Notes: a model not told the origin generated them from the sequence alone. A stretch of 64,000 bases of DNA from an uncultured Bacillota bacterium (GCA_963823655.1 CAWGMK010000005.1:25439-89438); one strand, 5' to 3'; shown: positions 1-34,483, counted from the stretch's first letter. Numbers and translations: made by a program.

Positions 1-38
1 TCAAGTACAGGGCTCCATATTTCCAAGGGGGCATTAAA

Positions 39-1559
39 GTGGATACAGCACCGATCCTTGAGGCCAGAAACATAAGCAAGGAATTTCCCGGCGTAAAGGC
101 GCTGGACAATGTATCGATTCAGATAAGGCGCGGCGAGGTGCACGTGCTCATCGGCGAGAACGGCGCGGGCAAGAGCACCCTATCCAAGATACTTATGGGA
201 GTCTATACGGCGGACCAGGGCGAGATACTGTTCGAGGGCAAGCCTATAAATGTAAGAAACCCTCATGATGCAAGATCCCACGGGATCTGTGGAGTCCATC
301 AGGAGTTCATGCTTGTGCCCTGGATGAACGTGGCGCAGAACATTTTCATCAACCGTGAACCCAAGAAATGGCCCGGCCTTCCCTTCATAGACCACAAGAA
401 GATGCACGAGGACAGCCGCAAGCTGCTGGCATCCTTCAACGTGGACATCAACACGAAGCAGCCGGTGAAATACCTGGATACGGCGCTGCAGCAGATGGTG
501 GAGATAGTAAAGGCCCTTTCCACCGACCCTAAGGTGCTGATCCTGGACGAGCCGACCGCAGTGCTGACCGAAAGGGAAGTCAACAACCTCTTCTCCCACA
601 TAGAAAGCCTGAGGAGCAGAGGGGTCTCCATCATCTACATCTCCCACAGGCTGCCGGAGATAAGGCGAATTGGCGACAGGGTCACAGTCCTGAGAGACGG
701 CAAATATGTTGCCACGGTTGATATTAAAGATACGACGGATGAGGAGCTCATCCGCATGATGGTAGGACGCGATGTGTCGCAGCTTTATCCTCGCAACAGG
801 CAGGTGCCGGGCAAGGAAGCCCTCAGGCTCGAGAACTTCTCGGTCAAGGGGGGCCCACAGTGCGTAAACCTTGAGCTGCATTACGGTGAGATAATCGGTT
901 TAGCAGGCCTTATCGGCTCCGGCAGGACCGAGCTTGTCAGGGGCATAATGGGAATAGACCAGAAGGAGGGCGGCAAGCTCTTCCTTGAGGGCAAAGAAGT
1001 GACCATCGGGAGCCCGGACAGAGCGATAAGCCTGGGGCTGGGGCTTCTGCCTGAAGACAGGAAGCGCTACGGCCTCGCACTGAAGACCAACATTGCTTGG
1101 AACACCGTTATGGCCAGCCTGAAGCACGAATTCCCGAAGAACATCGTCAGCGAGAAGAAGGTCAACAGCATTGCCCAGGAATATGTAAAGAAGCTCAAGA
1201 TCGCAACCGACTCCGTGGGCAAGATAGTAGGCTTCTTGAGCGGCGGCAACCAGCAGAAGGTCGTCGTGGCCAAGTGGATAAACACCAAGGCCAAGATACT
1301 CATATTCGACGAGCCGACCAGAGGCATAGACGTAGGAGCAAAGGCCGAAGTGCACGCTCTTATGGATAAGCTTGTGGCCGATGGCGCAGCGATTATCATG
1401 ATATCGTCCGACCTTCCCGAGGTGCTCGGAATGAGCGACCGCGTCTATACGATATTCCAGTGCAAGTCGGTCGGGGAGTGCTGCTTTGCAGATGCGAGCC
1501 AGCAGAGGATCGGGTCCCTGATGCTCGGAGTGGGGGTGAACACCGATGCGAAACAATAA
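39..1559 (+). CDS. Sugar (CUT2 family, RbsA/MglA-like) ABC transporter ATP-binding protein
   Basis: Walker A GENGAGKST, LILDEPT, second half LSGGNQQK...FDEPTRGIDVGAK; GGGGG RBS before GTG. The operon probably begins upstream of the window, since no binding protein is visible. Confidence 0.95.
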   Translation: MDTAPILEARNISKEFPGVKALDNVSIQIRRGEVHVLIGENGAGKSTLSKILMGVYTADQGEILFEGKPINVRNPHDARSHGICGVHQEFMLVPWMNVAQNIFINREPKKWPGLPFIDHKKMHEDSRKLLASFNVDINTKQPVKYLDTALQQMVEIVKALSTDPKVLILDEPTAVLTEREVNNLFSHIESLRSRGVSIIYISHRLPEIRRIGDRVTVLRDGKYVATVDIKDTTDEELIRMMVGRDVSQLYPRNRQVPGKEALRLENFSVKGGPQCVNLELHYGEIIGLAGLIGSGRTELVRGIMGIDQKEGGKLFLEGKEVTIGSPDRAISLGLGLLPEDRKRYGLALKTNIAWNTVMASLKHEFPKNIVSEKKVNSIAQEYVKKLKIATDSVGKIVGFLSGGNQQKVVVAKWINTKAKILIFDEPTRGIDVGAKAEVHALMDKLVADGAAIIMISSDLPEVLGMSDRVYTIFQCKSVGECCFADASQQRIGSLMLGVGVNTDAKQ

Positions 1560-2511
1560 GCTGGCATCGATACTCAGAAAGATACCGCCCGCGACCTACA
1601 TAATACTGCTGATGATTGCCATATACGGCTTCGCAGCCCCCGGCTTCTTCACCATCGGCAACCTGATTAACGTCGGCAACCAGGCGGCACCGCTTCTCAT
1701 CGTCTCCATCGGCGTGACCATGGTTATCATGACCGAGGGAACGGACCTTTCCATAGGTTACGTGATGGGAATGGTAAGCGTCGTGGTATCGCTAATGCTA
1801 AGGGCGGGCATATGGGTGGGCTGGGCCTTCATGGCGGGCTTAGCTACAGGGACTTTGTGCGGCTTCATCAACGGCTTTGCGGTGGCGAAGCTCAAATTGC
1901 CGCCGTTCATCGCAACACTTGGAACCGGCAACGTGATCTTCGGCATAGGGCTCGTCCTTACCGAAGGGTACTCCATACAGGCGCTCGACCCGGCCCTGCT
2001 ATTTTTAGCCAACGGTAAAGTACTGGGCTTCAGCATGCCGATACTGATGGCAATAGTGGTCTTCGCGGTCTGCTGGGTCATCTTCTATTACACGCCGTTC
2101 GGAAGGAACATCGTGTCCTTGGGCGGCAACTCCGAAGCCTTAAGAGGAGTCGGGCTAAACGTGGGCAAGGCCTCGATCTCCGTTTATATGGTCTGCGGCT
2201 TCCTTGCTGCAATCGGAGGCCTCATCATCGCATCCAGGACCGGCTCAGGCTACTCCGCAGCCGCGATGGGATGGGAGTTTGACGCCATCGGCGCTGCGAT
2301 AATCGGAGGCACATCCTTCGAAGAGGGCAACGGCTCGATAGGTAGGACGGTAATCGGCGTGGCCCTTATATCCATACTTAGAAACGGCCTTAACGTCGTA
2401 GGCGTGCCCAACATGTACCAGTACGCGTTGATAGGAGCGATCGTGCTAACGGCCATCATCCTCGATGTCCGCTTCCGTCAGGCTGCCAGAGGAGGTTTGA
2501 AGAGGGCATGA
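1546..2511 (+). CDS. Sugar ABC transporter permease (RbsC family)
   Basis: Hydrophobic; GTDLSIG, KLPPFIATLG, TPFGR...GGN.EA, AIIGGTSFEEG.G motifs; overlaps the previous gene. Confidence 0.93.
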   Translation: MRNNKLASILRKIPPATYIILLMIAIYGFAAPGFFTIGNLINVGNQAAPLLIVSIGVTMVIMTEGTDLSIGYVMGMVSVVVSLMLRAGIWVGWAFMAGLATGTLCGFINGFAVAKLKLPPFIATLGTGNVIFGIGLVLTEGYSIQALDPALLFLANGKVLGFSMPILMAIVVFAVCWVIFYYTPFGRNIVSLGGNSEALRGVGLNVGKASISVYMVCGFLAAIGGLIIASRTGSGYSAAAMGWEFDAIGAAIIGGTSFEEGNGSIGRTVIGVALISILRNGLNVVGVPNMYQYALIGAIVLTAIILDVRFRQAARGGLKRA

Positions 2512-3506
2512 AGGATAATGGAGTAAAGACACCCGAAGTCTCCAAGATCGGGACCGTGGTAAATGAGAGGCTCAAGGCGAGGGATACGATAGCCCCCCTG
2601 TTCCGCCTCACATTCCTCATTGTGCTCATGATAGCGCTGTCATTTTTAAGCGAGGACTTCCTTACCTGGAGCAATATAATCAACGTGCTCAGGCAGTCCA
2701 CATTCCTCATCGTAATCGGCCTGGGGCTTACTGGCGTGCTGCTTACGGGCGGAATTGACCTGTCAGTAGGCGGTGTGCTCGCATTCGTCGGCTGCGCCAC
2801 CGGACAGATGATGAGATCTGGCGTGCCGCTAGTGCTTGCTGTGATCATAGGCCTTGCGCTGGGCGCCGGCGTCGGCTTCTTCAACGGGTTGCTGGTAGGC
2901 TACGTCAAGCTGCCCCCGTTCGTTGCAACATACGGCTCGAAGTGGATCGCAGAGGGAATGGCATTGGCCCTTATGCAAGGGCAGGTCATCTACGGCTTCC
3001 CCAGAGTATACAGGTGGATTGGAATAGGCTACATCGGCCCGATACCTGTGCCGATCATCATCGCTGCCATACTGGCCGTAATAATGAACTTCCTTTATGT
3101 GAAGACGGTATTCGGACGGCAGGTATATGCCCTGGGGGCGAACAAGGAAGCTGCCTTCTACTCGGGCATTAAGGTGAAGAAGAACATCACCATAGTCTAT
3201 ACACTTGCAGGCCTTATGGCCGGCATAGCAGGCCTTCTCATGCTAGCGCGCCTTGACGCCGCCGAAGTCAACATGGGCGAGGCGCTGCAGCTGCAGTCGC
3301 TTGCCGCCGTAATCATCGGAGGCGCGTCGCTAAGAGGCGGCGAAGGCAGCATGTTCGGCACCATAATCGGCGCCATAACACTGACACTGGTCGTAAACGG
3401 CCTGAACCTGCTCGGCGTTAAATCCCTGTGGCACCCGGTCGTGCTGGGCGGTGTAATACTGATATCGGTAATCATCGACCTCAGGATGAAGAAGATGTCG
3501 CATTAG
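2508..3506 (+). CDS. Second sugar ABC transporter permease (RbsC family)
   Basis: GGIDLSVG, KLPPFVAT, TVFGRQVYALGANKEAA, AVIIGGASLRGGEG; ATGA overlap. Confidence 0.93.
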   Translation: MKDNGVKTPEVSKIGTVVNERLKARDTIAPLFRLTFLIVLMIALSFLSEDFLTWSNIINVLRQSTFLIVIGLGLTGVLLTGGIDLSVGGVLAFVGCATGQMMRSGVPLVLAVIIGLALGAGVGFFNGLLVGYVKLPPFVATYGSKWIAEGMALALMQGQVIYGFPRVYRWIGIGYIGPIPVPIIIAAILAVIMNFLYVKTVFGRQVYALGANKEAAFYSGIKVKKNITIVYTLAGLMAGIAGLLMLARLDAAEVNMGEALQLQSLAAVIIGGASLRGGEGSMFGTIIGAITLTLVVNGLNLLGVKSLWHPVVLGGVILISVIIDLRMKKMSH

Positions 3507-3551
3507 CAAAGTTTAGATAGTTTTATTACCAACAAACAAGGAGGAAAACCG

Positions 3552-4361
3552 ATGGCAAATCTCACAATCAGGCCCATAAACACGGGCTACGCGGAAACTT
3601 TCAAGAAGCAGTACCAGTATCATCATTCGACCCATAAGTTCCACAAGGTGGACGACGGCACATTGGTGCTGCCCTGCATGGCATTCCTAATCGAGGGCGG
3701 CGACAAGCTCATCCTGGTGGACACCGGAATGTCCAACACCGAAATCGCCAACAAGTACCATCATCCGGGCTCATACCAGCCTGAGGGAATGGCAATACAC
3801 GAGCAGTTCGCCAAGCTCGGCATCAAGCCCGAGGATGTGGACATCGTAATCTTCACCCATTTGCATTGGGACCACATGCACAACATGGGCAAGTTCAAGA
3901 ACGCCAGATTCATAGCCCACAAGAAGGAGTGGGAGTTCTGCCAGAATCCGATCCCGCTATATTACAAGTCCTATGAGTACCCCGTACTCGGCATCACGCC
4001 CCCTTACACCGGCCTTAAGATGGAGACGGTCGAAGGCGAGCAGGAGATAGCCCCCGGAGTGCGCGTGTTCGAGAGCCCCGGCCATTCTCCGGGCCATATG
4101 TCGGTCGAAGTCGACTGCGCGGACGGCTCATACATACTCTGCGGCGACGCAGTGTTCATTTACGACAACCTTAAGCCCGTGCCGGATATGTTCTATGACA
4201 TCACTCCTCCGGCGAGGTTCGCCAACATGATAGAGTGCTGGCACAGCATAGTCGACATGAAGAAGAGGGCCAAGGAACAGCGCTTCATCCTCCCCTCGCA
4301 CGAGCCCGAAATCGAGGAGCTCGCGAAGAAATACGGGACATTCCCCATACCCAAGAAGTAG
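3552..4361 (+). CDS. Metallo-beta-lactamase-fold hydrolase, AHL-lactonase-like (probable sugar lactonase)
   Basis: ILVDTG, THLHWDH, PGHSPGH, GDA, PSH metal-ligand motifs; strong GGAGG RBS. Confidence 0.85.
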   Translation: MANLTIRPINTGYAETFKKQYQYHHSTHKFHKVDDGTLVLPCMAFLIEGGDKLILVDTGMSNTEIANKYHHPGSYQPEGMAIHEQFAKLGIKPEDVDIVIFTHLHWDHMHNMGKFKNARFIAHKKEWEFCQNPIPLYYKSYEYPVLGITPPYTGLKMETVEGEQEIAPGVRVFESPGHSPGHMSVEVDCADGSYILCGDAVFIYDNLKPVPDMFYDITPPARFANMIECWHSIVDMKKRAKEQRFILPSHEPEIEELAKKYGTFPIPKK

Positions 4362-4386
4362 AACTACGCTTTTCTAGGGGGTGAGT

Positions 4387-4476
4387 GCCGGGGGTGTAGG
4401 GTCCGTAAGAGCTTGAGGCCGTTTGACCTCGCCCGGGCTAATGTTTGGGCGCTCGAAGGACAGTGCATCCTCCGGC
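4387..4476 (+). other. Branched (Y-shaped) structured intergenic element in front of the Tm-1-like gene
   Basis: Nested pairings: GCCGGGGGTGTA 4387-4398 with TGCATCCTCCGGC 4464-4476; GTCC/GGAC; GAGC/GCTC; hairpins GAGG..CCTC and GCCCGGGC-TAAT-GTTTGGGC; followed by CTTTTT. Confidence 0.5.
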
Positions 4477-4483
4477 CTTTTTC

Positions 4484-5707
4484 ATGAAGAAACCGATTGC
4501 AGTTATCGCTTCATTGGACACGAAGGGCATAGAGACCCTGTACGTAAAAGAGAAGATCGAGCGCCTTGGGCAAAGGGCGCTTGTCATAGATGTGGGAGTC
4601 AAGGAACCTGCCTTCTTCACGCCGGACATACGCAGAGATGAGGTGGCAAGCGCTGCGGGCATCATCTGGGACGATGTGAAGGGCAAGGAGAAGAAGGACA
4701 GGATAAACGCCATGATAGCGGGCCTTGAGAGGCTCATCCCGTCCCTATATGCAAAGGGCCTGATCTCGGGCGTCTTCTCCATGGGAGGGTTGCAGAACAC
4801 AACCATGGGGACTTCAGCAATGAAGACGCTGCCAATTGGCGTACCCAAGCTGATGCTTTCCACCATGGCGTCCAGTACCAGGCCCTTCGGCCCGTTCGTA
4901 GGGTCAAAGGATGTTACCATGATGCATTCGGTGGGGGACATCTTGGGCATCAACCCCGTCACCAGGGTGGTCATAGATAACGCCATAGGGGCGATCGTCG
5001 GAATGGTCGAGCACGCCGGCGAGCAGGTCAGAAAGCCGGAAGGGCACCTGGTCGGATGCACGATGCTCGGCGTGACCAACGACGGGGTGAGCAGGGCGGT
5101 ATCCTACCTCGAGCAGAAGGGCGTAGGAGTTGTGACATTCCACGCCAACGGGGCGGGCGGCCCGGCAATGGAAGAGCTCATAGAGCAGGGCATACTGACG
5201 GCCGCGATGGACCTTACGCTTCATGAGATAGACGCCGAGTTCTACGGCGGGCATTGTTCGGGGGCTACGGGAAGGCTACTTGCCGCGGCGAAAAAGGGAG
5301 TGCCCCAGGTTGTATCATTGGGCGCCTCCGACGTTATCGATTACGAAGTCATACACCTCTCCCAGGTGAAGGATTACCCTCGCCGCAAGTTCGTCTACCA
5401 GCACCCGACCATACAGCACATCAAGCTCATTGAAGAAGAGGCCATACATGTGGGCAAGACCATAAACGAGAGGCTCAACACCGCCACGGGCCCCGTTACT
5501 CTGATAATCCCGTGGGGAGGCTTCCATCAGAGCTCTCATAAGGCGGGACCCATATGGGATCCGGAGATAGACAAGCTCATAGTGGGCAATGTGCTCAACG
5601 GGCTCAATCCGGCGATCAAGATAGTCGAGACAGACGCGCATATAAATGACGTGAAGTTCAGCCGCCTTGCGGCGGATGAGATGCTAAAGCTCCTCGGAGT
5701 GGAATAA
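4484..5707 (+). CDS. Tm-1-like ATP-binding domain protein (UPF0261)
   Basis: SLDTKG.E N-terminus, LPIGVPKLMLST, SVGDILGIN, TMLGVT, FHANGAGGPAME, HIND..F; ATG 4484 matches the usual family N-terminus. Confidence 0.88.
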   Translation: MKKPIAVIASLDTKGIETLYVKEKIERLGQRALVIDVGVKEPAFFTPDIRRDEVASAAGIIWDDVKGKEKKDRINAMIAGLERLIPSLYAKGLISGVFSMGGLQNTTMGTSAMKTLPIGVPKLMLSTMASSTRPFGPFVGSKDVTMMHSVGDILGINPVTRVVIDNAIGAIVGMVEHAGEQVRKPEGHLVGCTMLGVTNDGVSRAVSYLEQKGVGVVTFHANGAGGPAMEELIEQGILTAAMDLTLHEIDAEFYGGHCSGATGRLLAAAKKGVPQVVSLGASDVIDYEVIHLSQVKDYPRRKFVYQHPTIQHIKLIEEEAIHVGKTINERLNTATGPVTLIIPWGGFHQSSHKAGPIWDPEIDKLIVGNVLNGLNPAIKIVETDAHINDVKFSRLAADEMLKLLGVE

Positions 5708-5750
5708 TCGGCCTGACAGGGCTTTTAATGTCGGAAGGGGTGGGTAAATT

Positions 5751-7005
5751 ATGTATTTCGGACTGCCGTTCGACCACGCGGAATCCCTTACAACTGGGGA
5801 CTACGTGCTCGGTACATACCTGGTGACAGGCGTCACCGGTGAGAATTCGCTAAACAAGCTGGGGATGTTCGCAATAGGACAGTCGACCGGCACCTGGATG
5901 CCCGTGCCCGGGATCACGAAGAAAATGGTGGAGGAGCATCAGGGCAGGGTGGTTGGCTGCTATCCCGTGCCTTCCGAGTCAAATGATTCATATATCCTGA
6001 GAGTCGCCTTTCCGTTCAGCAACATAGGCGGGTCGATTTCCATGATGCTCACGACGCTCGCCGGAAACGACGCATCTACCGCGCTTTGCGCAAGGCTAAT
6101 TGATGTGGAGCTCATAGGAAAGGCCGCGTCCGCCTTCGCCGGCCCGCGCTTCGGTGTGGACGGTATCAGGGAGCTCACAGGAGTGAAGGACCGCCCCGTA
6201 GTCATGAACATGATCAAGCCCTGCACGGGCTTTCCGGCCGAAGCAGGTGCCGAGTTCTTCTATGCGTCAGGCTCCGGCGGAGTCGATCTGATCAAGGACG
6301 ACGAGCTCATGGGCAATACGAGCTTCAGCAGCGTCGCGTCCAGGGTCAGGGAGTACGGCAAGGCGGCGGCCCGCATAAAGCAGGAGACCGGCAAAGCCCC
6401 CCTCTATATACCCAATGTGACCGACAGGCACGACAGGATGAGGGACAATATTAAAGCGGCAATCGACGGCGGGGCGAAAGGCGTAATGGTGAACTTCGTG
6501 TTCACAGGGTTGGACAGCCTTGCAGCGCTTACCGACGAGTTCGGCGGGAAAGTGATGTTCCTTGCGCACGGAGCAGGCATCGGCGTCATGACGGGCTCGC
6601 CCCAGGGGCTTAAGCGTCCCGCTGCTTCTAGGGCGCCTGGGAAGGCTTGCCGGCGCGGATGCAGTAGTCACGCTCTACCCTCTGGGACTGGGTGGAGAGG
6701 GCTTCCTCGACTTGCAGTTCACGGTGCAGAGGCATAAGCTCCCCATGTCGGGGCTGAAGCCGGTCATGAGCGTAGTAGGCGGCGGCGTAACGCCACTTAC
6801 CGTGCCTTTCGCCGTCAAGAACTTCGGAGCCGACATAATCATCGCGGTCGGCGGCGGCATACAGGGCCATCCCAACGGCGCGACGGCCGGGGCCAAGGCC
6901 ATGATGCAGGCAGTGGACGCCACGATGAAGGGCCAGTGCCTGGAGGATGCCGCGAAGGACCATGCGGAGCTTGCGGCCGCCCTGAAGCGCTGGGGCGCCA
7001 AGTAG
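5751..7005 (+). CDS. Form IV RuBisCO-like protein (RLP); one frameshift at ~6611
   Basis: QSTGTW, FAGPRFGVDGIR, MIKPCTG, GGVDLIKDDE, PNVT, LAH; removing one base at ~6611 restores GRLGRLAGAD...VVGGG...GGGIQGHPNGATAGAKA. Confidence 0.9.
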
Positions 7006-7055
7006 GGCGCGGTAGCTATTAATTCATGTTGATTAACTCGACTGGAGGGTTTGAT

Positions 7056-7670
7056 ATGGAAGACAAGATTCTAAACCTCAAAAAGCAAGTGGAGCTCGCC
7101 TGCAGGAGGGCTTACACGAGAGGGATACAGACCGGAAGCGGCGGAAACGTCAGCGCCAGGATCCCCGGCACCGACCACATGATAGTAAAGCCCAGCAAGG
7201 TTTCCCTGATCGAATGCGATCCGGAGACCCTGATTATAACGGACTTCGACGGCAACGTAGTGGAGGGGAAGCTGCCCCCCACTCGCGAGGCCGTCCTTCA
7301 CGGCTGGCTCTATAAGAAGTACGAGAAGATCGGCGCCGTTGTCCACGTGCATGCGCCCTGGGCCATAGCCTGGTCCTTTACCAAGAAGGACCTTCCCTGC
7401 ATCACGATGCATACGCAGCTGAAGCTCGGCTGCCCAACACCCGTCAGGTTCTTCTCCAGCCCCAAGGGCGTGCTGAAGGAGGAGATGCCGGAAGTGTACG
7501 GCCTTTTCGAGGCTGAGCCTGAGCTTTCGGCCTTCATACTCGGCGCGCACGGCATAGTGGCGGTGGGCAAGGACATCATCGAGGCGGAGCATACAGCAGA
7601 GCTAATCGAGGAGACGGCGCAGATCGCATACCTCAACGAGATAGGAAAGAAGCTGAACATAGTACCATAG
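7056..7670 (+). CDS. Class II aldolase/adducin family protein (FucA/AraD/OtnC-like)
   Basis: GGNVSAR, PTRE..LH, VVHVH, AHG, IEETA; GGAGG RBS favours ATG 7056. Confidence 0.88.
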   Translation: MEDKILNLKKQVELACRRAYTRGIQTGSGGNVSARIPGTDHMIVKPSKVSLIECDPETLIITDFDGNVVEGKLPPTREAVLHGWLYKKYEKIGAVVHVHAPWAIAWSFTKKDLPCITMHTQLKLGCPTPVRFFSSPKGVLKEEMPEVYGLFEAEPELSAFILGAHGIVAVGKDIIEAEHTAELIEETAQIAYLNEIGKKLNIVP

Positions 7671-7721
7671 GCTCCCTGGCAGGGGGGCAAGCCTTAATAT
7701 TGTTGGATAAGGGGTGTTAGC

Positions 7722-8183
7722 ATGCATAGGAAGATGGTCGTAGGGTGCGACGAAGCGGCCTGCGATTTGAAGGATTACCTGATAGGGGTACTTAAGAAGG
7801 AAGGCGTCGAAGTAGAGGACGTCGGAGTGGCCGATGCAAGCGACAAGACCGTATATCCGCTCGTCGCCGAGCGCGTGGCCAAAGCAATAATCGACAGCGG
7901 CTACGAGAAGCACGGCATGCTCATATGCGGCACAGGCATCGGCATGGCGATTTCCGCCAACAAGTTTCCCGGCATCTATGCTGCGGTTTGCCACGACCAG
8001 TTCTCGACCGAGAGGGCGAAGCTGAGCAACAACGGCAATGTGATTTGCATGGGCTCAAGGGTAATAGGCCCTGAGCTTGCCAGAGTGAACCTTCTGCAGT
8101 GGATCGGCCTTACTTTCAAGGACGGCTCATCGACGCCGAAGGTGAATGCTATCAAGGAAATCGAAAGAAGGAATATGAAATAA
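7722..8183 (+). CDS. RpiB/LacAB family sugar-phosphate isomerase (DerI-like, D-erythrulose-4-phosphate isomerase candidate)
   Basis: ICGTGIGMAISANK, NNGNVICMGSRVIG; GCDEA instead of the DH usual in RpiB; adjacent to a LerI-like TIM. Confidence 0.85.
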   Translation: MHRKMVVGCDEAACDLKDYLIGVLKKEGVEVEDVGVADASDKTVYPLVAERVAKAIIDSGYEKHGMLICGTGIGMAISANKFPGIYAAVCHDQFSTERAKLSNNGNVICMGSRVIGPELARVNLLQWIGLTFKDGSSTPKVNAIKEIERRNMK

Positions 8184-8184
8184 G

Positions 8185-8967
8185 ATGGGCCCTCTTATAA
8201 TTGGGACCAACCTCAAGATGTACAAGGGCGTGCAGGATACGCTCGCCTTTTTGAGAAAGCTCAGGGACAACGTCAGCGACATAGGGCCAAATGAGATGAC
8301 GCTGTTCGTTATCCCCTCATACCTCGCCCTTCCCGCCGCATGCTCGGAATTCTCGGGTGGCAGGCCTCTCATCGGCGCACAGAACATGCACTACGAGGAC
8401 AGCGGCCAGTTCACTGGGGAAGTATCGCCCGTCATGCTCAAGGAAGTGGGCGTTTCGATTGCGGAACTGGGACACTCAGAGAGAAGGCAGCTGTTCGGGG
8501 AGACCGACGACGGGGTGAACAGGAAGGCGAAGGCCGCGCTCAAACATGGTATGAGGGCGCTTATATGCATAGGCGAGACTGCAGACGACAAGGAGAAGGG
8601 CATCACTTACGAGAAGCTGAGGCTGCAGGCGAAGGTCGCGTTCAGGGGCATATCCGAGGACCAGCTCGACAGGGTATGGGTGGCCTACGAGCCCGTATGG
8701 GCGATAGGCGTCCAGGGAGTGCCCGCCGAGCCCTCATATGCGAGCATGAGCCACAGGATCATCCACGAGGTGATCGAAGAGCTCTATCCCGGGAAGGGAG
8801 CAAGCGTCCCGGTGCTCTACGGCGGAAGCGTAAACCCCGGCAATGCGAAGGAATTGATAGTGCAGCCATTCATAGACGGGCTTTTCATCGGCCGCTCGGC
8901 ATGGGAGGCGGATGCCTTCAACGCTATCATCCGCGATGTCCTGCCTTTGTGGAAGGGTAAGGCCTAA
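8185..8967 (+). CDS. Triosephosphate-isomerase family protein, LerI/EryH-like (L-erythrulose-1-phosphate isomerase candidate)
   Basis: GTNLKMYK instead of GNWKM, GHSERR, AYEPVWAIG, VLYGGSV, GLFIGRSAW instead of LVGGASL. Confidence 0.8.
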   Translation: MGPLIIGTNLKMYKGVQDTLAFLRKLRDNVSDIGPNEMTLFVIPSYLALPAACSEFSGGRPLIGAQNMHYEDSGQFTGEVSPVMLKEVGVSIAELGHSERRQLFGETDDGVNRKAKAALKHGMRALICIGETADDKEKGITYEKLRLQAKVAFRGISEDQLDRVWVAYEPVWAIGVQGVPAEPSYASMSHRIIHEVIEELYPGKGASVPVLYGGSVNPGNAKELIVQPFIDGLFIGRSAWEADAFNAIIRDVLPLWKGKA

Positions 8968-9046
8968 GCGATATTTTGTGGCGGAAGGAATAGAAAGCAT
9001 AATCCTCGGCATTGACGCCGCAGCGATATAAGGAGGCCAGTCCGTT

Positions 9047-9709
9047 ATGTCCAACGACATCTTAAAGACCAAAAAAGAGCTCATAGAGATCGGTAGGCAG
9101 ATCGCCGCAAAAGGGCTCGTAATAGGCCCCGGCGGCAACATAAGCGCAAGGACCGGCGGGAGCATGGTGATATCAGCCAGCGGCTCGTCGTTCGAGACTT
9201 CGACTGAGGATGATTACGTCGCGGTGGACATAGCTACCGGCAAGGCGGAGGAGGGCGCGAAAAGGCCATCGTCCGAAGTGCTGATGCACCTTGAATGCTA
9301 TCGCAGGCGCCCTGAGATCAACGCCGTGGTGCACACGCACCCGACATGGTCCACATCCGTTGCCAGCGCTGGCATAAAGATGCCCCCGATGTTCCCCGAT
9401 TACGTCGTGTTCGTGGGGGATCCTGCGACGCTCGATTACGTGATACCCACAACGAAGCTGCTGGCAGACGCTGTGGGCGGAGTCATCGCCGACCACAACG
9501 TCGTGCTCATGAGCAACCACGGAGTGCTCACTGTTGCGGGCGATCTGAACATGGCGCTTTTAAGGGTGGAGCTGGCGGAGGAGAATGCCAGGATGCTGAT
9601 AGCCGCCAAAACGCTCGGCATACCCAGGGTGCTTTCCGAGGCCGAGGTCAAAGCCATACACGACTTGGAGTCCGAGAAATACAGGCAGAAGCTTCTAAAG
9701 CAGGGATAA
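9047..9709 (+). CDS. Class II aldolase/adducin family protein
   Basis: GGNISAR, PSSE..MH, VVHTH, NHG, AEENA. Confidence 0.88.
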   Translation: MSNDILKTKKELIEIGRQIAAKGLVIGPGGNISARTGGSMVISASGSSFETSTEDDYVAVDIATGKAEEGAKRPSSEVLMHLECYRRRPEINAVVHTHPTWSTSVASAGIKMPPMFPDYVVFVGDPATLDYVIPTTKLLADAVGGVIADHNVVLMSNHGVLTVAGDLNMALLRVELAEENARMLIAAKTLGIPRVLSEAEVKAIHDLESEKYRQKLLKQG

Positions 9710-9728
9710 AAACGGGCCGGCAGTAAGC

Positions 9729-11234
9729 GTGCAGTTGCCGGAGGGAGCTGGGATTTTGGGCGATTTGATATTCATGGGGATAGACGTCGGCACAAGCGGA
9801 GCACGAGCAGTGCTTGTGGACGAAGAGGGTAGGATGCTCCACGAGGCATCGCTCGGCTTCAGCCTGCAAAATTCGCTCGTCGGCGGGGAGCCGGGCTGGT
9901 TCCAGCAGTCCCCGCAGATGTGGTGGGAGAGCCTTGTAAGCTGCATTTCGGATTGCGTGCTCCACCTAAAGGCGAAGGGCATCGCGGCCGACAGGATCAA
10001 ATGCGTATCGGTTACGTCCACCTCAGGCACAGTCATACCTCTTGATGGCGACTTTAAACCCCTGCACGATGCCGTAATGTACAACGACAGCCGCTCGGCG
10101 AAACAGGCGCAGGCCGCAAACGTTGAGCTGGGCTCCCTTACAAAAAGGCTCGGCTATAAGTTCGACGCCTCCTTCGGGCTATCGAAGATGCTGTGGTTCA
10201 AGGATGAGCTCCCGGGCGTCTTCGAGAGGACAAAAATGTTCGTCCATGCGGGCGATTACATAATCGGCAAGCTGTGCGGTATTTACGGCGTGACGGACTA
10301 CACGAATTCCCTCAAAAGCGGGTATGACCTGGAGAATCTCAAGTGGCCTGAGGAAATGGCAGGCCGCCTGGGAGTGGGCGCGGACAAGCTTCCCGAGGTG
10401 CTCCCTCCTGGGACCCCGATCGGGCATATAAGCCCAGAGTGCTCGGCTGCGACCGGGCTTTCGGTATCGACCGCAGTCGCATTGGGCATGACGGACGGTT
10501 GTACTTCCCAGATTGCATCGGGCGCCGCCTCATTGCAGCAATGGAACACCACGATCGGCACGACGCTTGTCATTAAAGGCGTGACCGAGAAGCTGATATT
10601 GGACCCTCAAGGGCGCATATACAGCCACAGGCATCCCGAAGGATATTGGATGCCGGGCGGCGCGAGCAATGTCGGCGGCGACTGCCTGAAGAACAACTTC
10701 AAGCCGGAGTCTTTCGATGAGCTGAACGCCAAGATCAAGGGGCGTGGCCCTTCCGGCATGATCGTATATCCTCTTGAGCGCAAGGGGGAGCGCTTCCCTC
10801 TGCGCAATGCGGACGCGACCGGCTTTAGAAAGGGCGAGCCTGCGGATGAGGCAGAACTTTATCAGGCCTATCTTGAGGGCGTAGGTTATGTTGAAAGGCT
10901 CGCCTACGATGTGCTTGAGGAGCTGGGGGCGGTTATTGGAGGCAGCATCTATTCAGCGGGCGGCGCTACAAAGAGCAAGGAATGGCTCAGGATCAGGGCC
11001 AACATAATGGGAAAAGAGATGCTTGTGCCAGAGGTCCCGGGAGGGCACATGGGGGCAGCGATACTTGCGGCCTCGAAGTCGTACTGGGGCTCGCTTGAGA
11101 CCGCGGCGAAGAATATGGTGCGGATAAAGGAATCCTTCATGCCGGATGCGCGCCAAACATCCCTTTACAAGGAGAAATACCTGGAATTCATACATGAAAT
11201 GACCGTCAGGGGATACATCGGAGGCGTTTTGTAG
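9729..11234 (+). CDS. FGGY family carbohydrate kinase
   Basis: GIDVGTSG, MYNDSR, TDG, IGTT, GERFP, EG, GG..K; the true start may be slightly downstream (TTG 9756). Confidence 0.9.
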   Translation: MQLPEGAGILGDLIFMGIDVGTSGARAVLVDEEGRMLHEASLGFSLQNSLVGGEPGWFQQSPQMWWESLVSCISDCVLHLKAKGIAADRIKCVSVTSTSGTVIPLDGDFKPLHDAVMYNDSRSAKQAQAANVELGSLTKRLGYKFDASFGLSKMLWFKDELPGVFERTKMFVHAGDYIIGKLCGIYGVTDYTNSLKSGYDLENLKWPEEMAGRLGVGADKLPEVLPPGTPIGHISPECSAATGLSVSTAVALGMTDGCTSQIASGAASLQQWNTTIGTTLVIKGVTEKLILDPQGRIYSHRHPEGYWMPGGASNVGGDCLKNNFKPESFDELNAKIKGRGPSGMIVYPLERKGERFPLRNADATGFRKGEPADEAELYQAYLEGVGYVERLAYDVLEELGAVIGGSIYSAGGATKSKEWLRIRANIMGKEMLVPEVPGGHMGAAILAASKSYWGSLETAAKNMVRIKESFMPDARQTSLYKEKYLEFIHEMTVRGYIGGVL

Positions 11235-11236
11235 CC

Positions 11237-12641
11237 ATGAGCATATACAAGGCATGTGACATCAGAGGCGTATATCCGACGCATCTTGATGAGGACCTCT
11301 CAAGGAAGATCGGCTCGGCGCTGGGCACGATGCTGGAATCCAGTCCGGTGCTGGTTGCTGGCGACGTTAGAACGAGCACCCGGTCATTGAAGGACGCGCT
11401 AATCGAAGGCCTCAGAGGGGCGGGCTGCGACGTAACTGATGTCGGCATAGTCCCGACTCCAGTCTTCTATTACGCGGTCCAGAAGCTGGGCATCCCTTCA
11501 GGAGTAACCGTCACTGCCTCGCACAACCCGGCCAAGTACAACGGCTTCAAGATTGCGCCCTTCGGGCAGCCCATAACCCTGGAGCTCATGGATGTACTCA
11601 AAAACACCGTGGAGTCAGGCAAATTCATCACCGGCAAACATGGCTCTCTAAATAAGAGGGAAGTCATTGAGGATTATAAGAGGTTCGTCGCCGAGAAGAT
11701 CGGCTGCATGTTCAAGGAAAGCGGCCCAAAACAGGCGGGCAAGGCGAAGCCACTGAAGCTGGTCGTAGACTGTGGAAACGGATGCTACAGCGCAATCGCC
11801 CCCGGGGTCCTAAGGGATGCGGGGTTTGAGGTTGAGGAGCTCTTCTGCGAGGAGGACGGATCCTTCCCGAACAGGGAGCCCAACCCTGCGGTCGCTGCAA
11901 ACCTTACGGCGCTTACAGAAGCGGTAGTGGAGAAGGGTGCGGACCTTGGGATCGCCTTCGACGGCGACGGCGACAGGGTCGTCTTCGCGGACGAGACAGG
12001 GGAGATAGTCCCGAGCGACAATGTCAATAGCCCTCTTCGCCCGCCATCTGCTTTCCATCTACCCCGGCTCCAAGGTCGTCTTCGACATCAAGTGCTCTAG
12101 CATTGTGCCCGATACGGTCAGGGCAGCCGGCGGCATCCCTGTGATGGAGAAGTCGGGGCATGCCTACATCAAGTCGAACCTGCTGAGAAACGGCGCAGTA
12201 TTCGCTGGCGAGATCAGCGGGCACTTCTTCTTCGACGCCCTGAAAGGCGACGACGGCCTGTTCGCATCGCTATTGATGGCGAGGATGCTTCAGGAGGGCG
12301 GAAAGTCGCTTAAGCAGCTAATCGACGCCCAGCCGAAATACTTCATCACCAAGGACCTTAGGATACCTTACGCGGAAGATCCTGCGGAGCTGCTTGATGA
12401 GATAAAGAGGAATTTGGCAGGGCAAAAGGGCTGTGAACTAGTCTTCCTGGATGGGATTAGGGCAGAATATGAGGCGGGTTGGGGACTGATAAGATCGTCT
12501 GTAACCGAGCCTCTTGTGACTTTGAGGTTCGAGGGCAGAACTCTGGCAGGCCTGTATGAAGTGAGGGATAAATTCCTTTCGTCCTCCACAAGGCTCAAGG
12601 GGCTTGTTGAAGCTGTGTGGGATAAGTATTCACCGAAATAG
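11237..12641 (+). CDS. Phosphomannomutase/phosphoglucomutase family protein; frameshift at ~12020
   Basis: DIRG, TASHNP, FDGDGDR in the first frame; GEISGH and RSSVTEP in the second frame. Confidence 0.88.
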
Positions 12642-12688
12642 GAAGCAGTAAACTCGGGATGTATGGCAGGGCTTAGGACTCAGATAGT

Positions 12689-13375
12689 CTATATTTGAGA
12701 GAAGCCCTTCATATATTCCTCATATTTAATGGCATCTACCTGAACCCTCCTGTTAATGCTCCTTATGAAGCCTTCGCTCATCAGCTCGTTCATCAGCTTG
12801 CTGATTGTGACCCGCGCGGCTCCTACGATTACGCCCAGCTCATAGTGCGTATATTTGACCTTGAGGCTGTACCAGCCAGGATCGGTCAAATCTTCCTTGT
12901 CCACGGACGAGCATAAAAGACGGACAATCCTGTCCTTGCAGGAGTTGAAAGTTAGGTTCTCGATTTCGTATCTGGTGATCAGCAGCTTCTGCGCAAGGCA
13001 CCTTATGAAGGCGTCCCTGAAATGGGGATTTTCATCTATGAGTATCCTGCACTTCTCGGGAGGAATCCTATAGAGCACAGTGTCGACTTCAGCCTGTGAA
13101 TAAAGTCCCGTCTTCTTGCCCAAATAGAAGCCCATTTCGCCGAAAAGCCAGCCGGGGGTGAGAGTATATAGGACTTTCTCCAGCCCATCCTCGTTTGCCA
13201 TGTAGTGCTTCGTCCTTCCGGACTTGATGTAAAGTACTCCGCCGAAATCATTGCCGGGCACAGAAAAAATCGTCTTCGCGGGGTAGGAGACCTTTACAGC
13301 ATTGCGCTCGATGAGAAGCTCAAGCTCCTCACTATGATGATGAGGCAACGTAAGATAAGAGTTCTCAAGGCCCAT
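12689..13375 (-). CDS. Crp/Fnr family transcriptional regulator
   Basis: cNMP-like domain (YIKSG, PGWLFGE) and C-terminal HTH THYELGVIVGAARVTISK; divergent from the DapA operon; RBS favours ATG 13375. Confidence 0.88.
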   Translation of the reverse strand: MGLENSYLTLPHHHSEELELLIERNAVKVSYPAKTIFSVPGNDFGGVLYIKSGRTKHYMANEDGLEKVLYTLTPGWLFGEMGFYLGKKTGLYSQAEVDTVLYRIPPEKCRILIDENPHFRDAFIRCLAQKLLITRYEIENLTFNSCKDRIVRLLCSSVDKEDLTDPGWYSLKVKYTHYELGVIVGAARVTISKLMNELMSEGFIRSINRRVQVDAIKYEEYMKGFSQI

Positions 13376-13548
13376 CCTCAACCCCCCCTCCCTCATGTAT
13401 TCATCTTATGTTTTATCAGCCGCCTTTTCAAACCGGCCGCAGTACTTCAAATATATATTTCTGCAAGCGGTAGCAGAAAATCCTGCCCGCCTAAAGAAAT
13501 CTTGTGATAACGCCAGTAATACATCGTTTTGGCTGCTCGCGGCGAACG

Positions 13549-13568
13549 ATTGTAGCATTTTATACAAT
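13549..13568. promoter_or_regulatory. Probable Crp/Fnr-family operator ATTGTA-N8-TACAAT
   Basis: Perfect inverted repeat with GTA-N8-TAC core (NtcA-type spacing), located between the divergent Crp/Fnr and DapA-family genes. Confidence 0.6.
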
Positions 13569-13648
13569 AAGTAAACTTATACAGACACGAATCGCCTCTT
13601 ATCCTATATTGAAGCTGTGACAGTAGAATACTTTCTGACTTAGGAGGG

Positions 13649-14569
13649 ATGAACTTGATCAAACCTACCGGATCCTGGGTAGCCATGCCCACGCCCTTCA
13701 ACAAAGACGAGTCAGTGGACTTCAAGGGCTTCAAAGTACTAATAGACAGGCAGATACAATACGGCACATCCTTGCTTTTCATGCTCGGCTCCTGCGGCGA
13801 GACTACCCTGCTTACACTAGATGAGAAGAAGCAAATCGTCAAACAGGTTGTGGCGATGACCAAGGGTCGCATACCGGTCTTCTTCAACGCATCTGCGGCC
13901 ACAACTGCGCAAAGCGTGGATTTTGCCAGGTTCTGCGAGGCGGAATCTGCGGACGGGGTAATCTTCACCGTCCCTCCCTATGTGCTCATACCCCAGAATG
14001 CAGTCCTTGAGCATCTGAATACATGTATGAGCGCCACGAAACTGCCCTGCGGGATATACAACAATCCCTCAAGGGTGGGCGTGCACATCGAACCCGAAAC
14101 AATTGCGAAGCTCTCGGAGGACAATCCCAACTTCATAGTCGACAAGGAGGCTATGCCCAGCGTAAAGCAGCTTGTGGAAGTAAAGAGGAAATGCGGCGAC
14201 AAAATCAATATTCTCTGCTGCGACTTCCCCCAGTATTCCATAGTGCTGCCGACGCTTGCAGTAGGAGGCAACGGGACGGCCAACATCGGAGGAAACGTAA
14301 TACCTGAGGAGATGGCGACGATTTCAAGGCCCTGGGACAGCATAGACAAGATGTTCACGGCCCGTGAGTTGTACTTCAAGTACTTCCCGGTCCTTCAGGG
14401 GCTTTACATGTTTTCGAATCCCATCGTGGTTAAAGCTGCAATGAAGATCCTGGGACTTCCGGGCGGGCCTCTGAGGAAGCCTTACCTGGACCTGACCGGG
14501 CAGAAGTTCGACGAGTTTGCGGCCTTACTAAAAGAGATGGGAATAATCGAGAAGTACGGCGTTAAGTAG
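13649..14569 (+). CDS. DapA/DHDPS-family class I aldolase or dehydratase
   Basis: TPF, GSCGE (instead of GTTGE), PPY, IYNNPSR, catalytic K in DKEA, NPIVVKAA. Confidence 0.85.
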   Translation: MNLIKPTGSWVAMPTPFNKDESVDFKGFKVLIDRQIQYGTSLLFMLGSCGETTLLTLDEKKQIVKQVVAMTKGRIPVFFNASAATTAQSVDFARFCEAESADGVIFTVPPYVLIPQNAVLEHLNTCMSATKLPCGIYNNPSRVGVHIEPETIAKLSEDNPNFIVDKEAMPSVKQLVEVKRKCGDKINILCCDFPQYSIVLPTLAVGGNGTANIGGNVIPEEMATISRPWDSIDKMFTARELYFKYFPVLQGLYMFSNPIVVKAAMKILGLPGGPLRKPYLDLTGQKFDEFAALLKEMGIIEKYGVK

Positions 14570-14732
14570 GCGAGGCCGAAGGCTTTAGAGCAAGCGCCTG
14601 TGCCAATGAACGGTTGTTTAAGTAAACATCGGAAATAGGGAACATAAAGCGATATGGATACTACAGAGTAATCACTGGGAGATATGGAAGCCCAATAGAG
14701 CAGAAGACAAATATGAAGGAGGAAAACCGGAA

Positions 14733-15706
14733 ATGAAGAAGACAGCCATGCGTTTCCTGATTGCAAGCGCGCTAGTATTCCTCATGATGTTCTCCGCCAT
14801 AGCTGCGGCCCCCAAGTTCCTGACAGTATCGACCGGGCCGGTCGGCGGCGAATGGTACATCCTCGGCGGCATTCTCTCCGAGCTTCTCAAACCCGTATTG
14901 CCTGATACGAAGATTACGGCGACTACCGGCGGCGGCGTTGCCAACCTGAGCACGGTTGCGTCCGGCAAGAGCGATATAGGCACCACTCAGGACCAGCTGC
15001 TCTTTGATGCGAGGAATGGCACGACGGACTTCACAACCGGCAAGCTCACAAACGTTGTGGCCCTAGGATACCTTGCTGACATCTATATGAGCGTGTTCCT
15101 CGTTCGCGAGGATTACGACATAGCTTCCCTTGATGACCTCGCCGCTAAAAAAATGGGCATCAAGATTTTGACAGCGCCTACAGGTTCAACCCCCTCCAGA
15201 GCGGCTACGAGAATGCTTAGCGAATATGGCGTAACTCCCGACCTTCTCAAGTCATGGGGAGGAAGCATCAGCTACGTCGCATACGCGGACGCAAGCTCGA
15301 TGATCAGGGATGGCCATGCCGACGCCTACTGCGGACCTATAATGCCGGCAATCATAGAGCTGACGGTATCGCGCAAGATGAAGATGCTACCGGTAAAAGA
15401 TGTAGTACTCAAGGCGATGACTGCCAAGTATGCATACGGCCGCGCCACGATACCGGCCGGCGCCTACGATTTTGTTAAGTCCAATACCCCCGTCATGACC
15501 GAATCGCCATTCTTATCGTCAGGGATGACGTTGATGAGCAGACTGTATATGCGATAACCAAGGCAATTGCAGAGAATCCGGACAAGATCAAAGGCGCCGG
15601 TGCGACGTACGCAAAGTTCGACCCTAAGATGATGCCAAACATCTCCGGCGGCCCGATACATCCGGGCGCCCTCAAGTATTACAAGGAAGTAGGCTGGGTA
15701 AAATAA
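14733..15706 (+). CDS. TAXI family TRAP transporter solute-binding protein; frameshift at ~15508
   Basis: Signal peptide, TGPVGGEWY, TGGGVANL; adding one C restores ILIVRDDVDEQTVYAITKA...PIHPGALKYYKE, with stop at 15704-15706. Confidence 0.88.
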
Positions 15707-15723
15707 GCTAACAGTCGATGGGC

Positions 15724-15751
15724 CGGGGGGTTGGCTAATTCCAGCCCCCCG
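15724..15751 (+). terminator. Stem-loop after the SBP gene (mRNA stabiliser or partial terminator)
   Basis: CGGGGGGTTGG-CTAATT-CCAGCCCCCCG, no long U tract. Confidence 0.5.
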
Positions 15752-15775
15752 ACAGTAATTTGGGGGTAATCAGCC

Positions 15776-17644: not shown

Positions 17645-17662
17645 CATACCGAATGCGGAGGA

Positions 17663-32063: not shown

Positions 32064-32086
32064 TGGTAAACCTCCAAATAATCTTA

Positions 32087-33470: not shown

Positions 33471-33517
33471 GAAATTACCTCCTTAATTTACTCTATATGA
33501 ATGCGGGTTCGCGAAAC

Positions 33518-34355: not shown

Positions 34356-34483
34356 GTATCCATACCTCCATCACGTTGAGTTTGAATGCTATTAAACGCC
34401 TTTGAAGGGAACTGCTGTGGTTGATTACACAATGACTGCCGGTATGATAGGTATTCACTAATTTTCTAAAATTTCCTATATCT

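Follow-up and report, generated by a model that had tools for sequence, protein, structure and literature searches.

RuBisCO-like proteins (RLPs) have been tied, to our knowledge, to a handful of reactions: enolase, 1,3-isomerase, decarboxylase, transcarboxylase/hydrolase and oxygenase. Carter et al. reportedly described, in 2018, a catabolic route for D-apionate that runs via ApnO, OiaK, the RLP OiaX, LerI and DerI. In the erythritol lower pathway of Brucella, the racemase EryC, the triose-phosphate isomerase (TIM)-like EryH and the RpiB-like EryI take tetrulose-1-phosphate to erythrose-4-phosphate in three isomerase-type steps. The apiose and apionate routes are summarised in PMC13753588, which names EryH/EryI and LerI/DerI for the route to erythrose-4-phosphate. 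Also, the UPF0261 protein MarK was reported in 2025 to carry out an ATP-dependent, ADP-forming phosphorylation, the first catalytic activity of its family according to that source (PMC12624787). Here we describe a group of genes in a 64-kb stretch of DNA from an uncultured Bacillota bacterium (G000:C5:25439-89438, hereafter the window), where an RLP of the RuBisCO-like form IV stands beside a UPF0261 protein and beside TIM-like and RpiB-like isomerases.

We found that the genes at 39-8967, together with the gene of a substrate-binding protein (SBP) just upstream of the window, form a conserved and uncharacterised catabolic cassette, and we give a probability of about 55% to the reading that it is redox-neutral, ends at erythrose-4-phosphate and employs its RLP for enolisation. 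From its gene content, conservation, family placement and residue conservation, which were observed, we infer every enzymatic step and the end product. Among 13 complete cassettes, no oxidoreductase belongs to the conserved core, and therefore the path from import to a central metabolite must be redox-neutral. In the proposed order of events, a CUT2-type ATP-binding cassette (ABC) system with a ribose-binding-protein-like receptor would import a neutral sugar-derived compound, most likely a lactone; a metallo-beta-lactamase (MBL)-fold enzyme would open the lactone ring and the UPF0261 protein would phosphorylate the product with ATP. A class II aldolase-family protein (Aldo1), perhaps through a decarboxylation of the OtnC type, and the RLP would then convert the phosphorylated intermediate into a tetrulose phosphate, which the dedicated TIM-like and RpiB-like paralogues would take to D-erythrose-4-phosphate as LerI/EryH and DerI/EryI do.

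Genes were assigned from open reading frame (ORF) calls and from Pfam and NCBIfam profiles, the matches being judged against the NCBIfam cut-offs, and 25 kb of upstream sequence (L001) were examined too. Eleven same-direction genes with small intergenic gaps occupy 39-12641 on the + strand (ORFs, Pfam). The gene list of the first-pass annotation holds for every family, for the strand and for the positions, but overlooked that the RLP and phosphomutase genes are split. The features are as follows, in window coordinates except for the first:

L001:18965-19972 (28-1035 bases before the window), co-oriented: RbsB-like SBP (Pfam Peripla_BP_4)
39-1559, +: ATPase of a CUT2-type sugar ABC transporter with two ABC domains (Pfam ABC_tran, 2 stretches)
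1546-2511 and 2508-3506, +: two ABC permeases (Pfam BPD_transp_2 each)
3552-4361, +: MBL-fold hydrolase of the lactonase-like branch, putative lactonase (Pfam Lactamase_B)
4445-5707, +: UPF0261 (Tm-1/MarK family) protein, putative ATP-dependent kinase (Pfam UPF0261 and UPF0261_C; PF06792, PF23189)
5751-7005, +: form IV RLP, frame-split (Pfam RuBisCO_large_N and RuBisCO_large; PF02788, PF00016)
7026-7670, +: class II aldolase/adducin-family protein, Aldo1 (Pfam Aldolase_II)
7722-8183, +: RpiB-like sugar-phosphate isomerase with a presumed DerI/EryI-like role (Pfam LacAB_rpiB)
8185-8967, +: TIM-like isomerase with a presumed LerI/EryH-like role (Pfam TIM, PF00121, 242 bits)
9047-9709, +: second class II aldolase-family protein, Aldo2, add-on (Pfam Aldolase_II)
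9729-11234, +: FGGY-family sugar kinase, add-on (Pfam FGGY_N and FGGY_C)
11237-12641, +: mutase of the alpha-D-phosphohexomutase family, frame-split, add-on (Pfam PGM_PMM domains)
12689-13396, -: CRP/FNR-family regulator, convergent with the end of the operon (Pfam cNMP_binding and HTH_Crp_2)

The family scores of the RLP were taken with P0001, an intact homologue of 417 amino acids that is 99% identical to the window protein. It reaches 278.2 bits against the MtnW model NF007095 (cut-off 409) and 226.2 bits against the MtnW model TIGR03332 (cut-off 513.6), 221.8 bits against form III RuBisCO (TIGR03326, cut-off 497) and 143.8 bits against the OiaX equivalog NF042437 (cut-off 700), to which the two pieces encoded in the window align with 99.6 and 48 bits. 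Because it falls below all the MtnW, form III and OiaX cut-offs, the protein is, as judged from sequence, a form IV RLP that belongs to none of the curated functional families, and its score far below the OiaX cut-off argues against simple membership of the known apionate pathway. Both RuBisCO domains are present, the carbamate/metal motif is kept and the carboxylation residues are lost. Its closest solved structures are 4NAS (212.5 bits) and the MtnW structures 2OEK and 2ZVI.

An alignment of 16 members of the RLP family shows invariant K156, K182, D184, E185 and H273 and invariant glycine motifs at 343-345 and 367-368, which we take to correspond to K175, K201, D203, E204, H294 and the P1 phosphate site of RuBisCO. 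An invariant Cys158 occupies the position of RuBisCO K177 (spinach numbering), neither His nor Lys is found at the H327 and K334 positions, and the R295 position is not conserved as in RuBisCO. Judging by these residues, the RLP still has the P1 phosphate site and the apparatus for enolisation on Mg-carbamate, but its second phosphate site is gone and so is the loop-6 Lys, which handles CO2; for this reason it would most likely enolise and reprotonate a 2-ketose monophosphate. In addition, Asn106 aligns with the Lys98 position of 2OEK (K98 of G. kaustophilus). This Lys is presumably the general base of MtnW, a role reportedly dealt with by Imker et al. in 2007. A role of the RLP in methionine salvage was considered and is ruled out by the residue at the Lys98 position, the sub-cut-off MtnW scores and the genomic context.

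The conservation of the cassette was analyzed by scanning one genome per species for relatives of the RLP, which gave 513 relatives in 600 matched stretches; the best 80 loci were kept and the window proteins were searched against them by tblastn. The TIM-like protein was found in 39 of these 80 loci, UPF0261 in 35, the RpiB-like protein in 33, the MBL hydrolase in 26 and Aldo1 in 23, and the transport genes were similarly placed (SBP in 22/80, ATPase in 23/80, the first and second permease in 20 and 24 of 80). All five core partners (MBL, UPF0261, Aldo1, RpiB-like and TIM-like) accompany the RLP in 13/80 loci, from records labelled Bacillota and Acidobacteriota. If the count is confined to the 44 loci whose RLP is flanked on each side by 6 kb or more, UPF0261 is present in 23, an RpiB or TIM partner in 29, all five in 9 and none in 5. 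Thus a conserved neighbourhood does exist, and its absence, which the first-pass annotation had named as grounds for discarding the idea, is not what we found. The context that it listed as a unit has to be trimmed: the ABC transporter, the MBL hydrolase, UPF0261, the RLP, one aldolase-family protein and the RpiB-like and TIM-like isomerases recur, but the FGGY kinase (17/80 loci, at merely 21-27% identity), Aldo2 (5/80) and the phosphomutase (0/80) are not conserved partners.

A maximum-likelihood (ML) tree was built from 75 RLP rows, P0001 among them and no characterised outgroup; six loci were left out, three of the 80 with RLP ORFs shorter than 380 amino acids and three with mis-extended ORFs longer than 470. 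The window RLP falls in a clade of 23 rows with an SH-aLRT support of 100, and UPF0261 lies beside the RLP in 21 of the 22 other members, the exception being a contig that starts at the RLP. Contexts with MBL and UPF0261 appear in two further parts of the tree. Among the genomes of 41 relatives of the organism, the RLP occurs in this genus only (G000, G002 and G004), and it was not found at E <=1e-30 in the 34 genomes outside the genus. This restriction fits a cassette that moves horizontally. The cassette is also carried by the cultured strains Muricomes intestini DSM 29489 (L079) and Bariatricus massiliensis AT12 (L070).

Some partners vary from locus to locus. A GntR/FCD regulator is a recurrent extra (18/80 loci), as is an MtaA-like protein of the URO-D family (6/80). 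In some RLP relatives the MBL gene is replaced by a zinc-dependent alcohol dehydrogenase (Zn-ADH) with a cupin of the lyxose-isomerase type, or by an aldehyde:ferredoxin oxidoreductase (AFOR); the Zn-ADH and the cupin are found in the second cassette of two Christensenellaceae. In Chloroflexota (L056:2739-9435; also L027, L035 and L041), MBL, UPF0261 and RLP genes lie among several URO-D/MtaA-like proteins, a B12-binding protein and an aldolase of the DeoC/LacD type, which suggests that this variant includes a corrinoid methyl-transfer step.

UPF0261 is a very widespread family, and the first-pass annotation, in which FGGY was the only kinase seen, listed its member here as a "Tm-1-like protein"; most likely this is no accessory but the kinase that seemed to be missing, given the kinase activity of MarK and a Lys at the ATP site. 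The protein scores 394.4 bits against NCBIfam NF002674 (cut-off 335), and MarK (9MPY) is its closest solved structure, at 162 bits. It has both domains of the family, and its Lys27 aligns with residue 16 of 9MPY. According to the MarK report, a Lys at the position of Tm-1 K20 and MarK residue 16 contacts the alpha-phosphate of ATP, and the exchange E16K at the ATP site of MarK raised activity about 1600-fold (PMC12624787). On these comparisons, the UPF0261 protein is probably the kinase of the pathway and would do what falls, in related clusters, to a kinase of the DUF1537 or FGGY kind or to a phosphotransferase system (PTS).

The TIM-like gene begins one base after the RpiB-like gene, so that a TIM paralogue stands directly beside an RpiB, as LerI or EryH would. 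The RpiB-like protein belongs to the RpiB subfamily NF004051 (149 bits, cut-off 135). The genome holds a second, higher-scoring RpiB on contig C10 and a TIM copy on contig C13 that scores 290 bits against PF00121, compared with 242 bits for the cassette protein; since higher-scoring copies are found elsewhere, those of the cassette are dedicated paralogues. A further TIM copy on contig C10 lies in four pieces (G000:C10:33570-34307). Adjacent TIM-like and RpiB-like paralogues are the signature of the conversion of tetrulose-1-phosphate to D-erythrulose-4-phosphate and then to D-erythrose-4-phosphate.

What the RLP may do before this conversion is suggested by the smallest clusters. In L078 and L080 (also in L055 and L077) the RLP is found with a Gat-type PTS, an RpiB-like protein, a TIM-like protein and a small unknown protein, and these minimal PTS-linked clusters have no kinase, lactonase or dehydrogenase. 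There the PTS would deliver a sugar phosphate and only isomerase-type enzymes would follow. In L037, L052, L070 and L079 this RLP subclade is accompanied by MBL, UPF0261 and Aldo1 instead, and because it is found with each of the two upper modules, these probably deliver the same intermediate. In this sense, a PTS and two isomerases as the sole context of an RLP favour an isomerase or epimerase over a decarboxylase like OiaX. From C3 of a 2-ketose-1-phosphate the RLP would remove a proton, like RuBisCO does on ribulose bisphosphate, and would then return the proton to the opposite face or shift the carbonyl, acting as a 3-epimerase or as a carbonyl-shifting isomerase that does the job of EryC in Brucella. 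We consider an epimerase or isomerase role an even bet; a decarboxylation of a phospho-3-keto acid, as by OiaX, is the less likely alternative and on the whole doubtful, and any other role is more unlikely still. A new RLP reaction on a branched or rare sugar (acid) had been proposed from the window alone: that the route is undescribed seems likely, and as for the reaction, the PTS-type contexts turn the balance towards isomerisation or epimerisation.

The route that OiaX serves offers a different explanation, in which the cassette would be an oxidative D-apiose/D-apionate variant: the MBL enzyme would be an apionolactonase, UPF0261 would replace OiaK, the RLP would be a 3-oxo-isoapionate-4-phosphate decarboxylase of the OiaX type feeding LerI and DerI, and ApnO would be encoded elsewhere or be replaced. 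The set of lactonase, kinase, RLP, TIM-like and RpiB-like proteins does fit the outline of route 1 in the summary (PMC13753588), and so does the type of the SBP, which is pentose- or furanose-binding. To this could be added a transketolase on contig C4 that is split into N and C subunits, stands next to a CUT2 sugar ABC system and is reminiscent of the non-oxidative transketolase route for apiose; it lies at L102:10886-15184, on the other strand and near the DUF1537 gene mentioned below. Nevertheless, the score of the RLP against the OiaX model lies below even its MtnW and form III scores, and the core of the 13 complete cassettes holds neither a dehydrogenase nor an oxidoisomerase. The 64-kb window and the 25 kb before it contain neither an ApnO-like gene nor a DUF1537 gene, a search that for ApnO was not genome-wide, and the upper half of the pathway hence differs from the apionate route as had been claimed. 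The only DUF1537 (PF07005) gene of the genome, of the four-carbon acid-sugar kinase family, is on contig C4 (G000:C4:111442-112720; L102:7440-8720), among unrelated genes that include a MarR regulator and ABC exporters, and is unlinked to the cassette. We regard this variant as quite unlikely.

The nature of the lactone raises another alternative. The best NCBIfam matches of the MBL protein, which stays far below the cut-offs of all the lactonase equivalogs, are 4-pyridoxolactonase (95 bits, cut-off 325) and AiiA (89 bits), and its closest solved structures are likewise AiiA lactonases and 4-pyridoxolactonase (61-77 bits; PF00753 fold). Were the cassette a counterpart of the Ula/Sgb pathway for ascorbate, fed by an ABC system, then L-ascorbate or another reductone lactone would be hydrolysed by the MBL enzyme, phosphorylated by UPF0261 and decarboxylated to a pentulose-5-phosphate, the RLP acting as 3-epimerase and the aldolase-family protein as 4-epimerase on the way to xylulose-5-phosphate. 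Such a route is redox-neutral, as the core requires; the best NCBIfam matches of Aldo1, all of them below cut-off, are subfamilies of L-ribulose-5-phosphate 4-epimerase (119 bits for the best, cut-off 251), and the operon with its flank has three genes of the aldolase family. Moreover, a true UlaG (590 bits, cut-off 306) stands in the same cluster in an Erysipelotrichaceae metagenome-assembled genome (L052:5307-7229), where this L-ascorbate-6-phosphate lactonase and an esterase are directly upstream of Aldo1-MBL-UPF0261-RLP. However, UlaG occurs in just that one of the 80 loci, the MBL protein has no match to the UlaG model (NCBIfam), the PTS permeases of the related clusters match the galactitol model and not UlaA, and the scheme leaves nothing to do for the TIM-like and RpiB-like paralogues, which are strongly conserved. 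We therefore hold an ascorbate-like route to be unlikely, if a shade less so than the apionate variant.

A third possibility centres on the aldolase-family protein, which by sequence could be an aldolase, a decarboxylase, an epimerase or a dehydratase. Its His-x-His motif, third His and Glu align with those of the closest solved aldolase (6BTD), so that the Glu and three His of true aldolases are retained, and ribulose-1-phosphate aldolase models match all three aldolase-family proteins with 76-137 bits; against NF043034 (cut-off 250 bits), Aldo1, Aldo2 and the divergent aldolase upstream score 90.3, 96.9 and 97.5 bits. UPF0261 might thus make a pentulose-1-phosphate that the RLP epimerises and the class II aldolase splits into dihydroxyacetone phosphate (DHAP) and glycolaldehyde, with the TIM-like protein taking the DHAP and an AFOR oxidising the aldehyde in some genomes. 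An AFOR gene is co-oriented in 4/80 loci, and the window itself is preceded by one at a distance of about 8 kb. The TIM-like protein also comes close to the cut-off of ordinary TIM. But such a route would give no role to the MBL hydrolase and the RpiB-like protein, DHAP needs no dedicated TIM paralogue, and there is no aldolase near the RLP in the minimal PTS-linked clusters L078 and L080. This scheme appears improbable.

The redox-neutral route to erythrose-4-phosphate, which we prefer, has to face several observations that weigh against it. The RpiB-like protein reaches 144.6 bits against the DerI equivalog NF051858, far from its cut-off of 240, and the TIM-like protein, with 292.5 bits, falls just short of the 293 bits set for ordinary triose-phosphate isomerase and might be nothing more than a TIM serving DHAP released by an aldolase. 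Aldo1 is below cut-off alike for the epimerase, aldolase, OtnC and MtnB models. In the ML tree, long branches separate the window clade from the PTS-linked clade, so that carrying function across from one to the other is uncertain. The chemistry is also demanding, as the product of a lactonase is an acid. The RLP substrates that we know of have a carbonyl. Since the core contains no dehydrogenase, the lactone that the model calls for would already have to be oxidised; since no oxidation is available, this lactone should be at the keto-acid level, as a reductone or a keto-aldonolactone. In the summary of these routes, D-ribonate is converted to D-erythrulose-4-phosphate via 2- and 3-oxo intermediates and a decarboxylation, and a keto-pentonate gives erythrulose phosphate; keto-acid-level chemistry therefore has a precedent there (PMC13753588). 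Finally, the RLP and mutase frames are broken in the assembly as given, and if the breaks were real the pathway would be dead in this organism.

These breaks were examined solely by comparison with relatives. The RLP gene is read in frame 0 at 5751-6737 and in frame +1 up to 7005, and alignment with its congener G004 and with P0001 locates the break as one extra G in the run at 6605-6608. The two pieces cover positions 4-271 and 273-403 of the MtnW profile, and since they abut only a single base is amiss. The gene is free of stops in the two congeners G002 and G004. The phosphomutase is split into 11237-12100 (domains I-II) and 12021-12641 (domains III-IV, Pfam PGM_PMM) by one extra base at about 12024-12026 in the alignment with G004, where the gene is intact. 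Contigs of related strains were also drawn from four public metagenome runs (X1-X4), none of which holds more than 0.20 of the sampled words and in which a lack of cover counts as no evidence. At 6605/6612, both covering contigs of run X2 are one base shorter, and at 12024/12026 so are the covering contigs, two from X1, one from X2 and two from X3; the other runs have no cover at these sites. No RNA sequencing run carrying the stretch is listed among the runs searched.

The damage is spread over the genome. When ORFs of at least 150 amino acids on contig C1 of G004 with an orthologue-like match in G000 were counted, 18 of 81 genes were split over more than one frame in G000, compared with 3 of 80 in the reverse comparison. 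It is implausible that so many breaks are real, because the genome holds 97% of marker genes; together with the lack of either insertion in the relatives, this leads us to read the insertions as assembly errors. From these alignments, the two frameshifts are most likely assembly indels. The cassette might otherwise be a decaying remnant in which both frameshifts are real mutations and the pathway is non-functional here. Both genes are indeed broken in the sequence as given and the phosphomutase insertion lies outside any long homopolymer, but the RLP insertion sits in a run of G, the frames are undamaged apart from the single bases and the rate of split genes speaks for the assembly; real decay has, in our opinion, little to recommend it. 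The broken frames in G000 should not be taken as pseudogenes, being probably assembly errors. G000 looks like an unpolished long-read assembly, and with so many split genes its gene calls need care. Other split genes in the window are a GntP permease, a class II fructose-bisphosphate (FBP) aldolase and an EamA transporter (32087-33470, 33658-34355 and 54851-55769), and upstream an AFOR and a permease (L001:10501-12395 and 14269-15232). A single frame of 572 amino acids at L001:15988-17706 combines DUF1177 and ABC ATPase domains and, given the assembly indels, may stem from two genes that were run together when a stop or the frame was lost.

The last three genes of the row, at 9047-12641 (Aldo2, FGGY kinase and mutase), appear from their distribution to be a module in its own right that was coupled to the cassette in this genus, because the FGGY-mutase pair occurs without the RLP in G021, a genome of a different family in the same phylum. 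There the neighbours of the pair are a xylose-isomerase-like barrel protein and an ABC system unlike the one described here, and the RLP was not found in that genome. Orthologue-like matches of the FGGY kinase, with 49-64% identity, are present in G002, G004, G006 and G021; against the XylB model it scores 213.5 bits (cut-off 380). Aldo2, which is conserved in G004, has L-fuculose-phosphate aldolase as its best NCBIfam match (128.6 bits, cut-off 264). The add-on module may feed the same lower pathway, for example if the FGGY protein acts, by analogy, as an erythrulose kinase like LerK, which is named in route 3 of the summary (PMC13753588).

G004 keeps the order of all 14 genes: divergent aldolase, SBP, ATPase, two permeases, MBL, UPF0261, RLP, Aldo1, RpiB, TIM, Aldo2, FGGY and mutase. 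The synteny goes on with the convergent CRP regulator, in the same position there (L095), and then a DHDPS-family gene. At the other end, the operon was correctly suspected to begin before position 1, as the SBP gene proves to be its sole co-oriented member in the 25 kb upstream. The closest solved structures of the SBP are ribose-binding proteins, and the ATPase scores 488-517 bits against the NCBIfam xylose, multiple-sugar and ribose ATPase models, reaching none of their cut-offs. The SBP gene is preceded by a third class II aldolase-family gene, which is divergent. Missing enzymes had also been considered possible upstream; the SBP and this aldolase-family gene were found, but no ApnO or DUF1537 gene. 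Farther upstream are an unrelated ABC system of the amino-acid type and the AFOR gene. A scan of 1-13700 for promoter and terminator consensus sequences gave 5 against 7.7 and 11 against 11.3 in shuffled sequence, and is uninformative on the operon boundaries.

Other gene groups of the window lie downstream. Directly after the operon, at 13649-18055, are genes for a DHDPS-family lyase (the one syntenic in G004), an NMT1_3-type binding protein, a DctM-type TRAP membrane protein of 622 amino acids and a PCC-domain protein. A second cluster of the sugar-acid type, at 30543-36683 on the - strand, comprises an FGGY kinase, the split GntP permease, the split class II aldolase of the FBP/tagatose type, a D-2-hydroxyacid dehydrogenase and a fragment of an RpiR-type regulator. 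At 36932-45283 follow an FAD amine-oxidase-like protein, a fourth class II aldolase-family gene and an MFS transporter, and then a GntR/FCD regulator, a D-2-hydroxyacid dehydrogenase and a LarA-family (nickel-pincer racemase/epimerase) protein, which may represent another hydroxy-acid or sugar-acid pathway.

Taking the proposal one step further, the RLP clade could represent a novel kind of enzyme, which would draw on the enolisation step of RuBisCO and on nothing else to epimerise a ketose-1-phosphate at C3 or to shift its carbonyl, and UPF0261 could be the first carbohydrate kinase of its family; with the MBL lactonase they would lead from a keto-sugar lactone to erythrose-4-phosphate by a hitherto undescribed, redox-neutral pathway that has spread horizontally among anaerobes of several phyla, cultured gut Lachnospiraceae included. 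We put this forward tentatively and with clearly less confidence than the general reading of the cassette. Every RLP reaction added so far has revealed a way of putting the RuBisCO active site to a further use, and a sugar-linked UPF0261 member would widen the known chemistry of a family so far linked to aromatic compounds. The presence of the cassette in cultured strains (Muricomes intestini and Bariatricus massiliensis) makes it directly testable. In our literature search, which lay outside subscription journals and preprint supplements, no paper was found that links an RLP with UPF0261 or describes the cassette; RuBisCO-like proteins and erythrulose were joined in a general review only, and the statement of the first-pass annotation that RLPs act in tetronate routes found no support.

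In outline, the cassette resembles the OiaX route and the erythritol lower pathway, and it is a member of neither, because the defining features of OiaX and MtnW were tested and are lacking. The MtnW/YkrW RLPs, 2,3-diketo-5-methylthiopentyl-1-phosphate (DK-MTP-1-P) enolases with structures 2OEK, 2ZVI and 4NAS, are the nearest in structures and profiles and have in common with the window protein the Mg-carbamate triad and an active site of the monophosphate type; in contrast to them, it misses both cut-offs, has Asn for Lys98 and lacks methionine-salvage neighbours in its cassette. MarK (Saro_1862 of Novosphingobium aromaticivorans; 9MPY; PMC12624787) is of the same two-domain family as the UPF0261 protein and shares the ATP-contacting Lys, but its substrates are aromatic phenolic ketones, whereas the window protein is found in a sugar context beside an RLP. 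The OiaX route for D-apionate likewise relies on a sugar-acid operon that unites an RLP, a step of the lactonase type, a kinase and TIM-like and RpiB-like enzymes leading to erythrose-4-phosphate; it differs in having ApnO and a DUF1537 kinase, for which the kinase candidate here is UPF0261, in an RLP far removed by profile score (143.8 against 700 bits) and in lacking the class II aldolase-family protein that is an extra conserved member of our cassette. With the erythritol pathway of Brucella, the cassette shares the TIM-like and RpiB-like paralogues side by side; the upstream steps are assigned to a lactonase and UPF0261 here and to EryA and EryB there, and in the place of an EryC-family gene, which encodes a xylose-isomerase-like barrel, the cassette carries the RLP.

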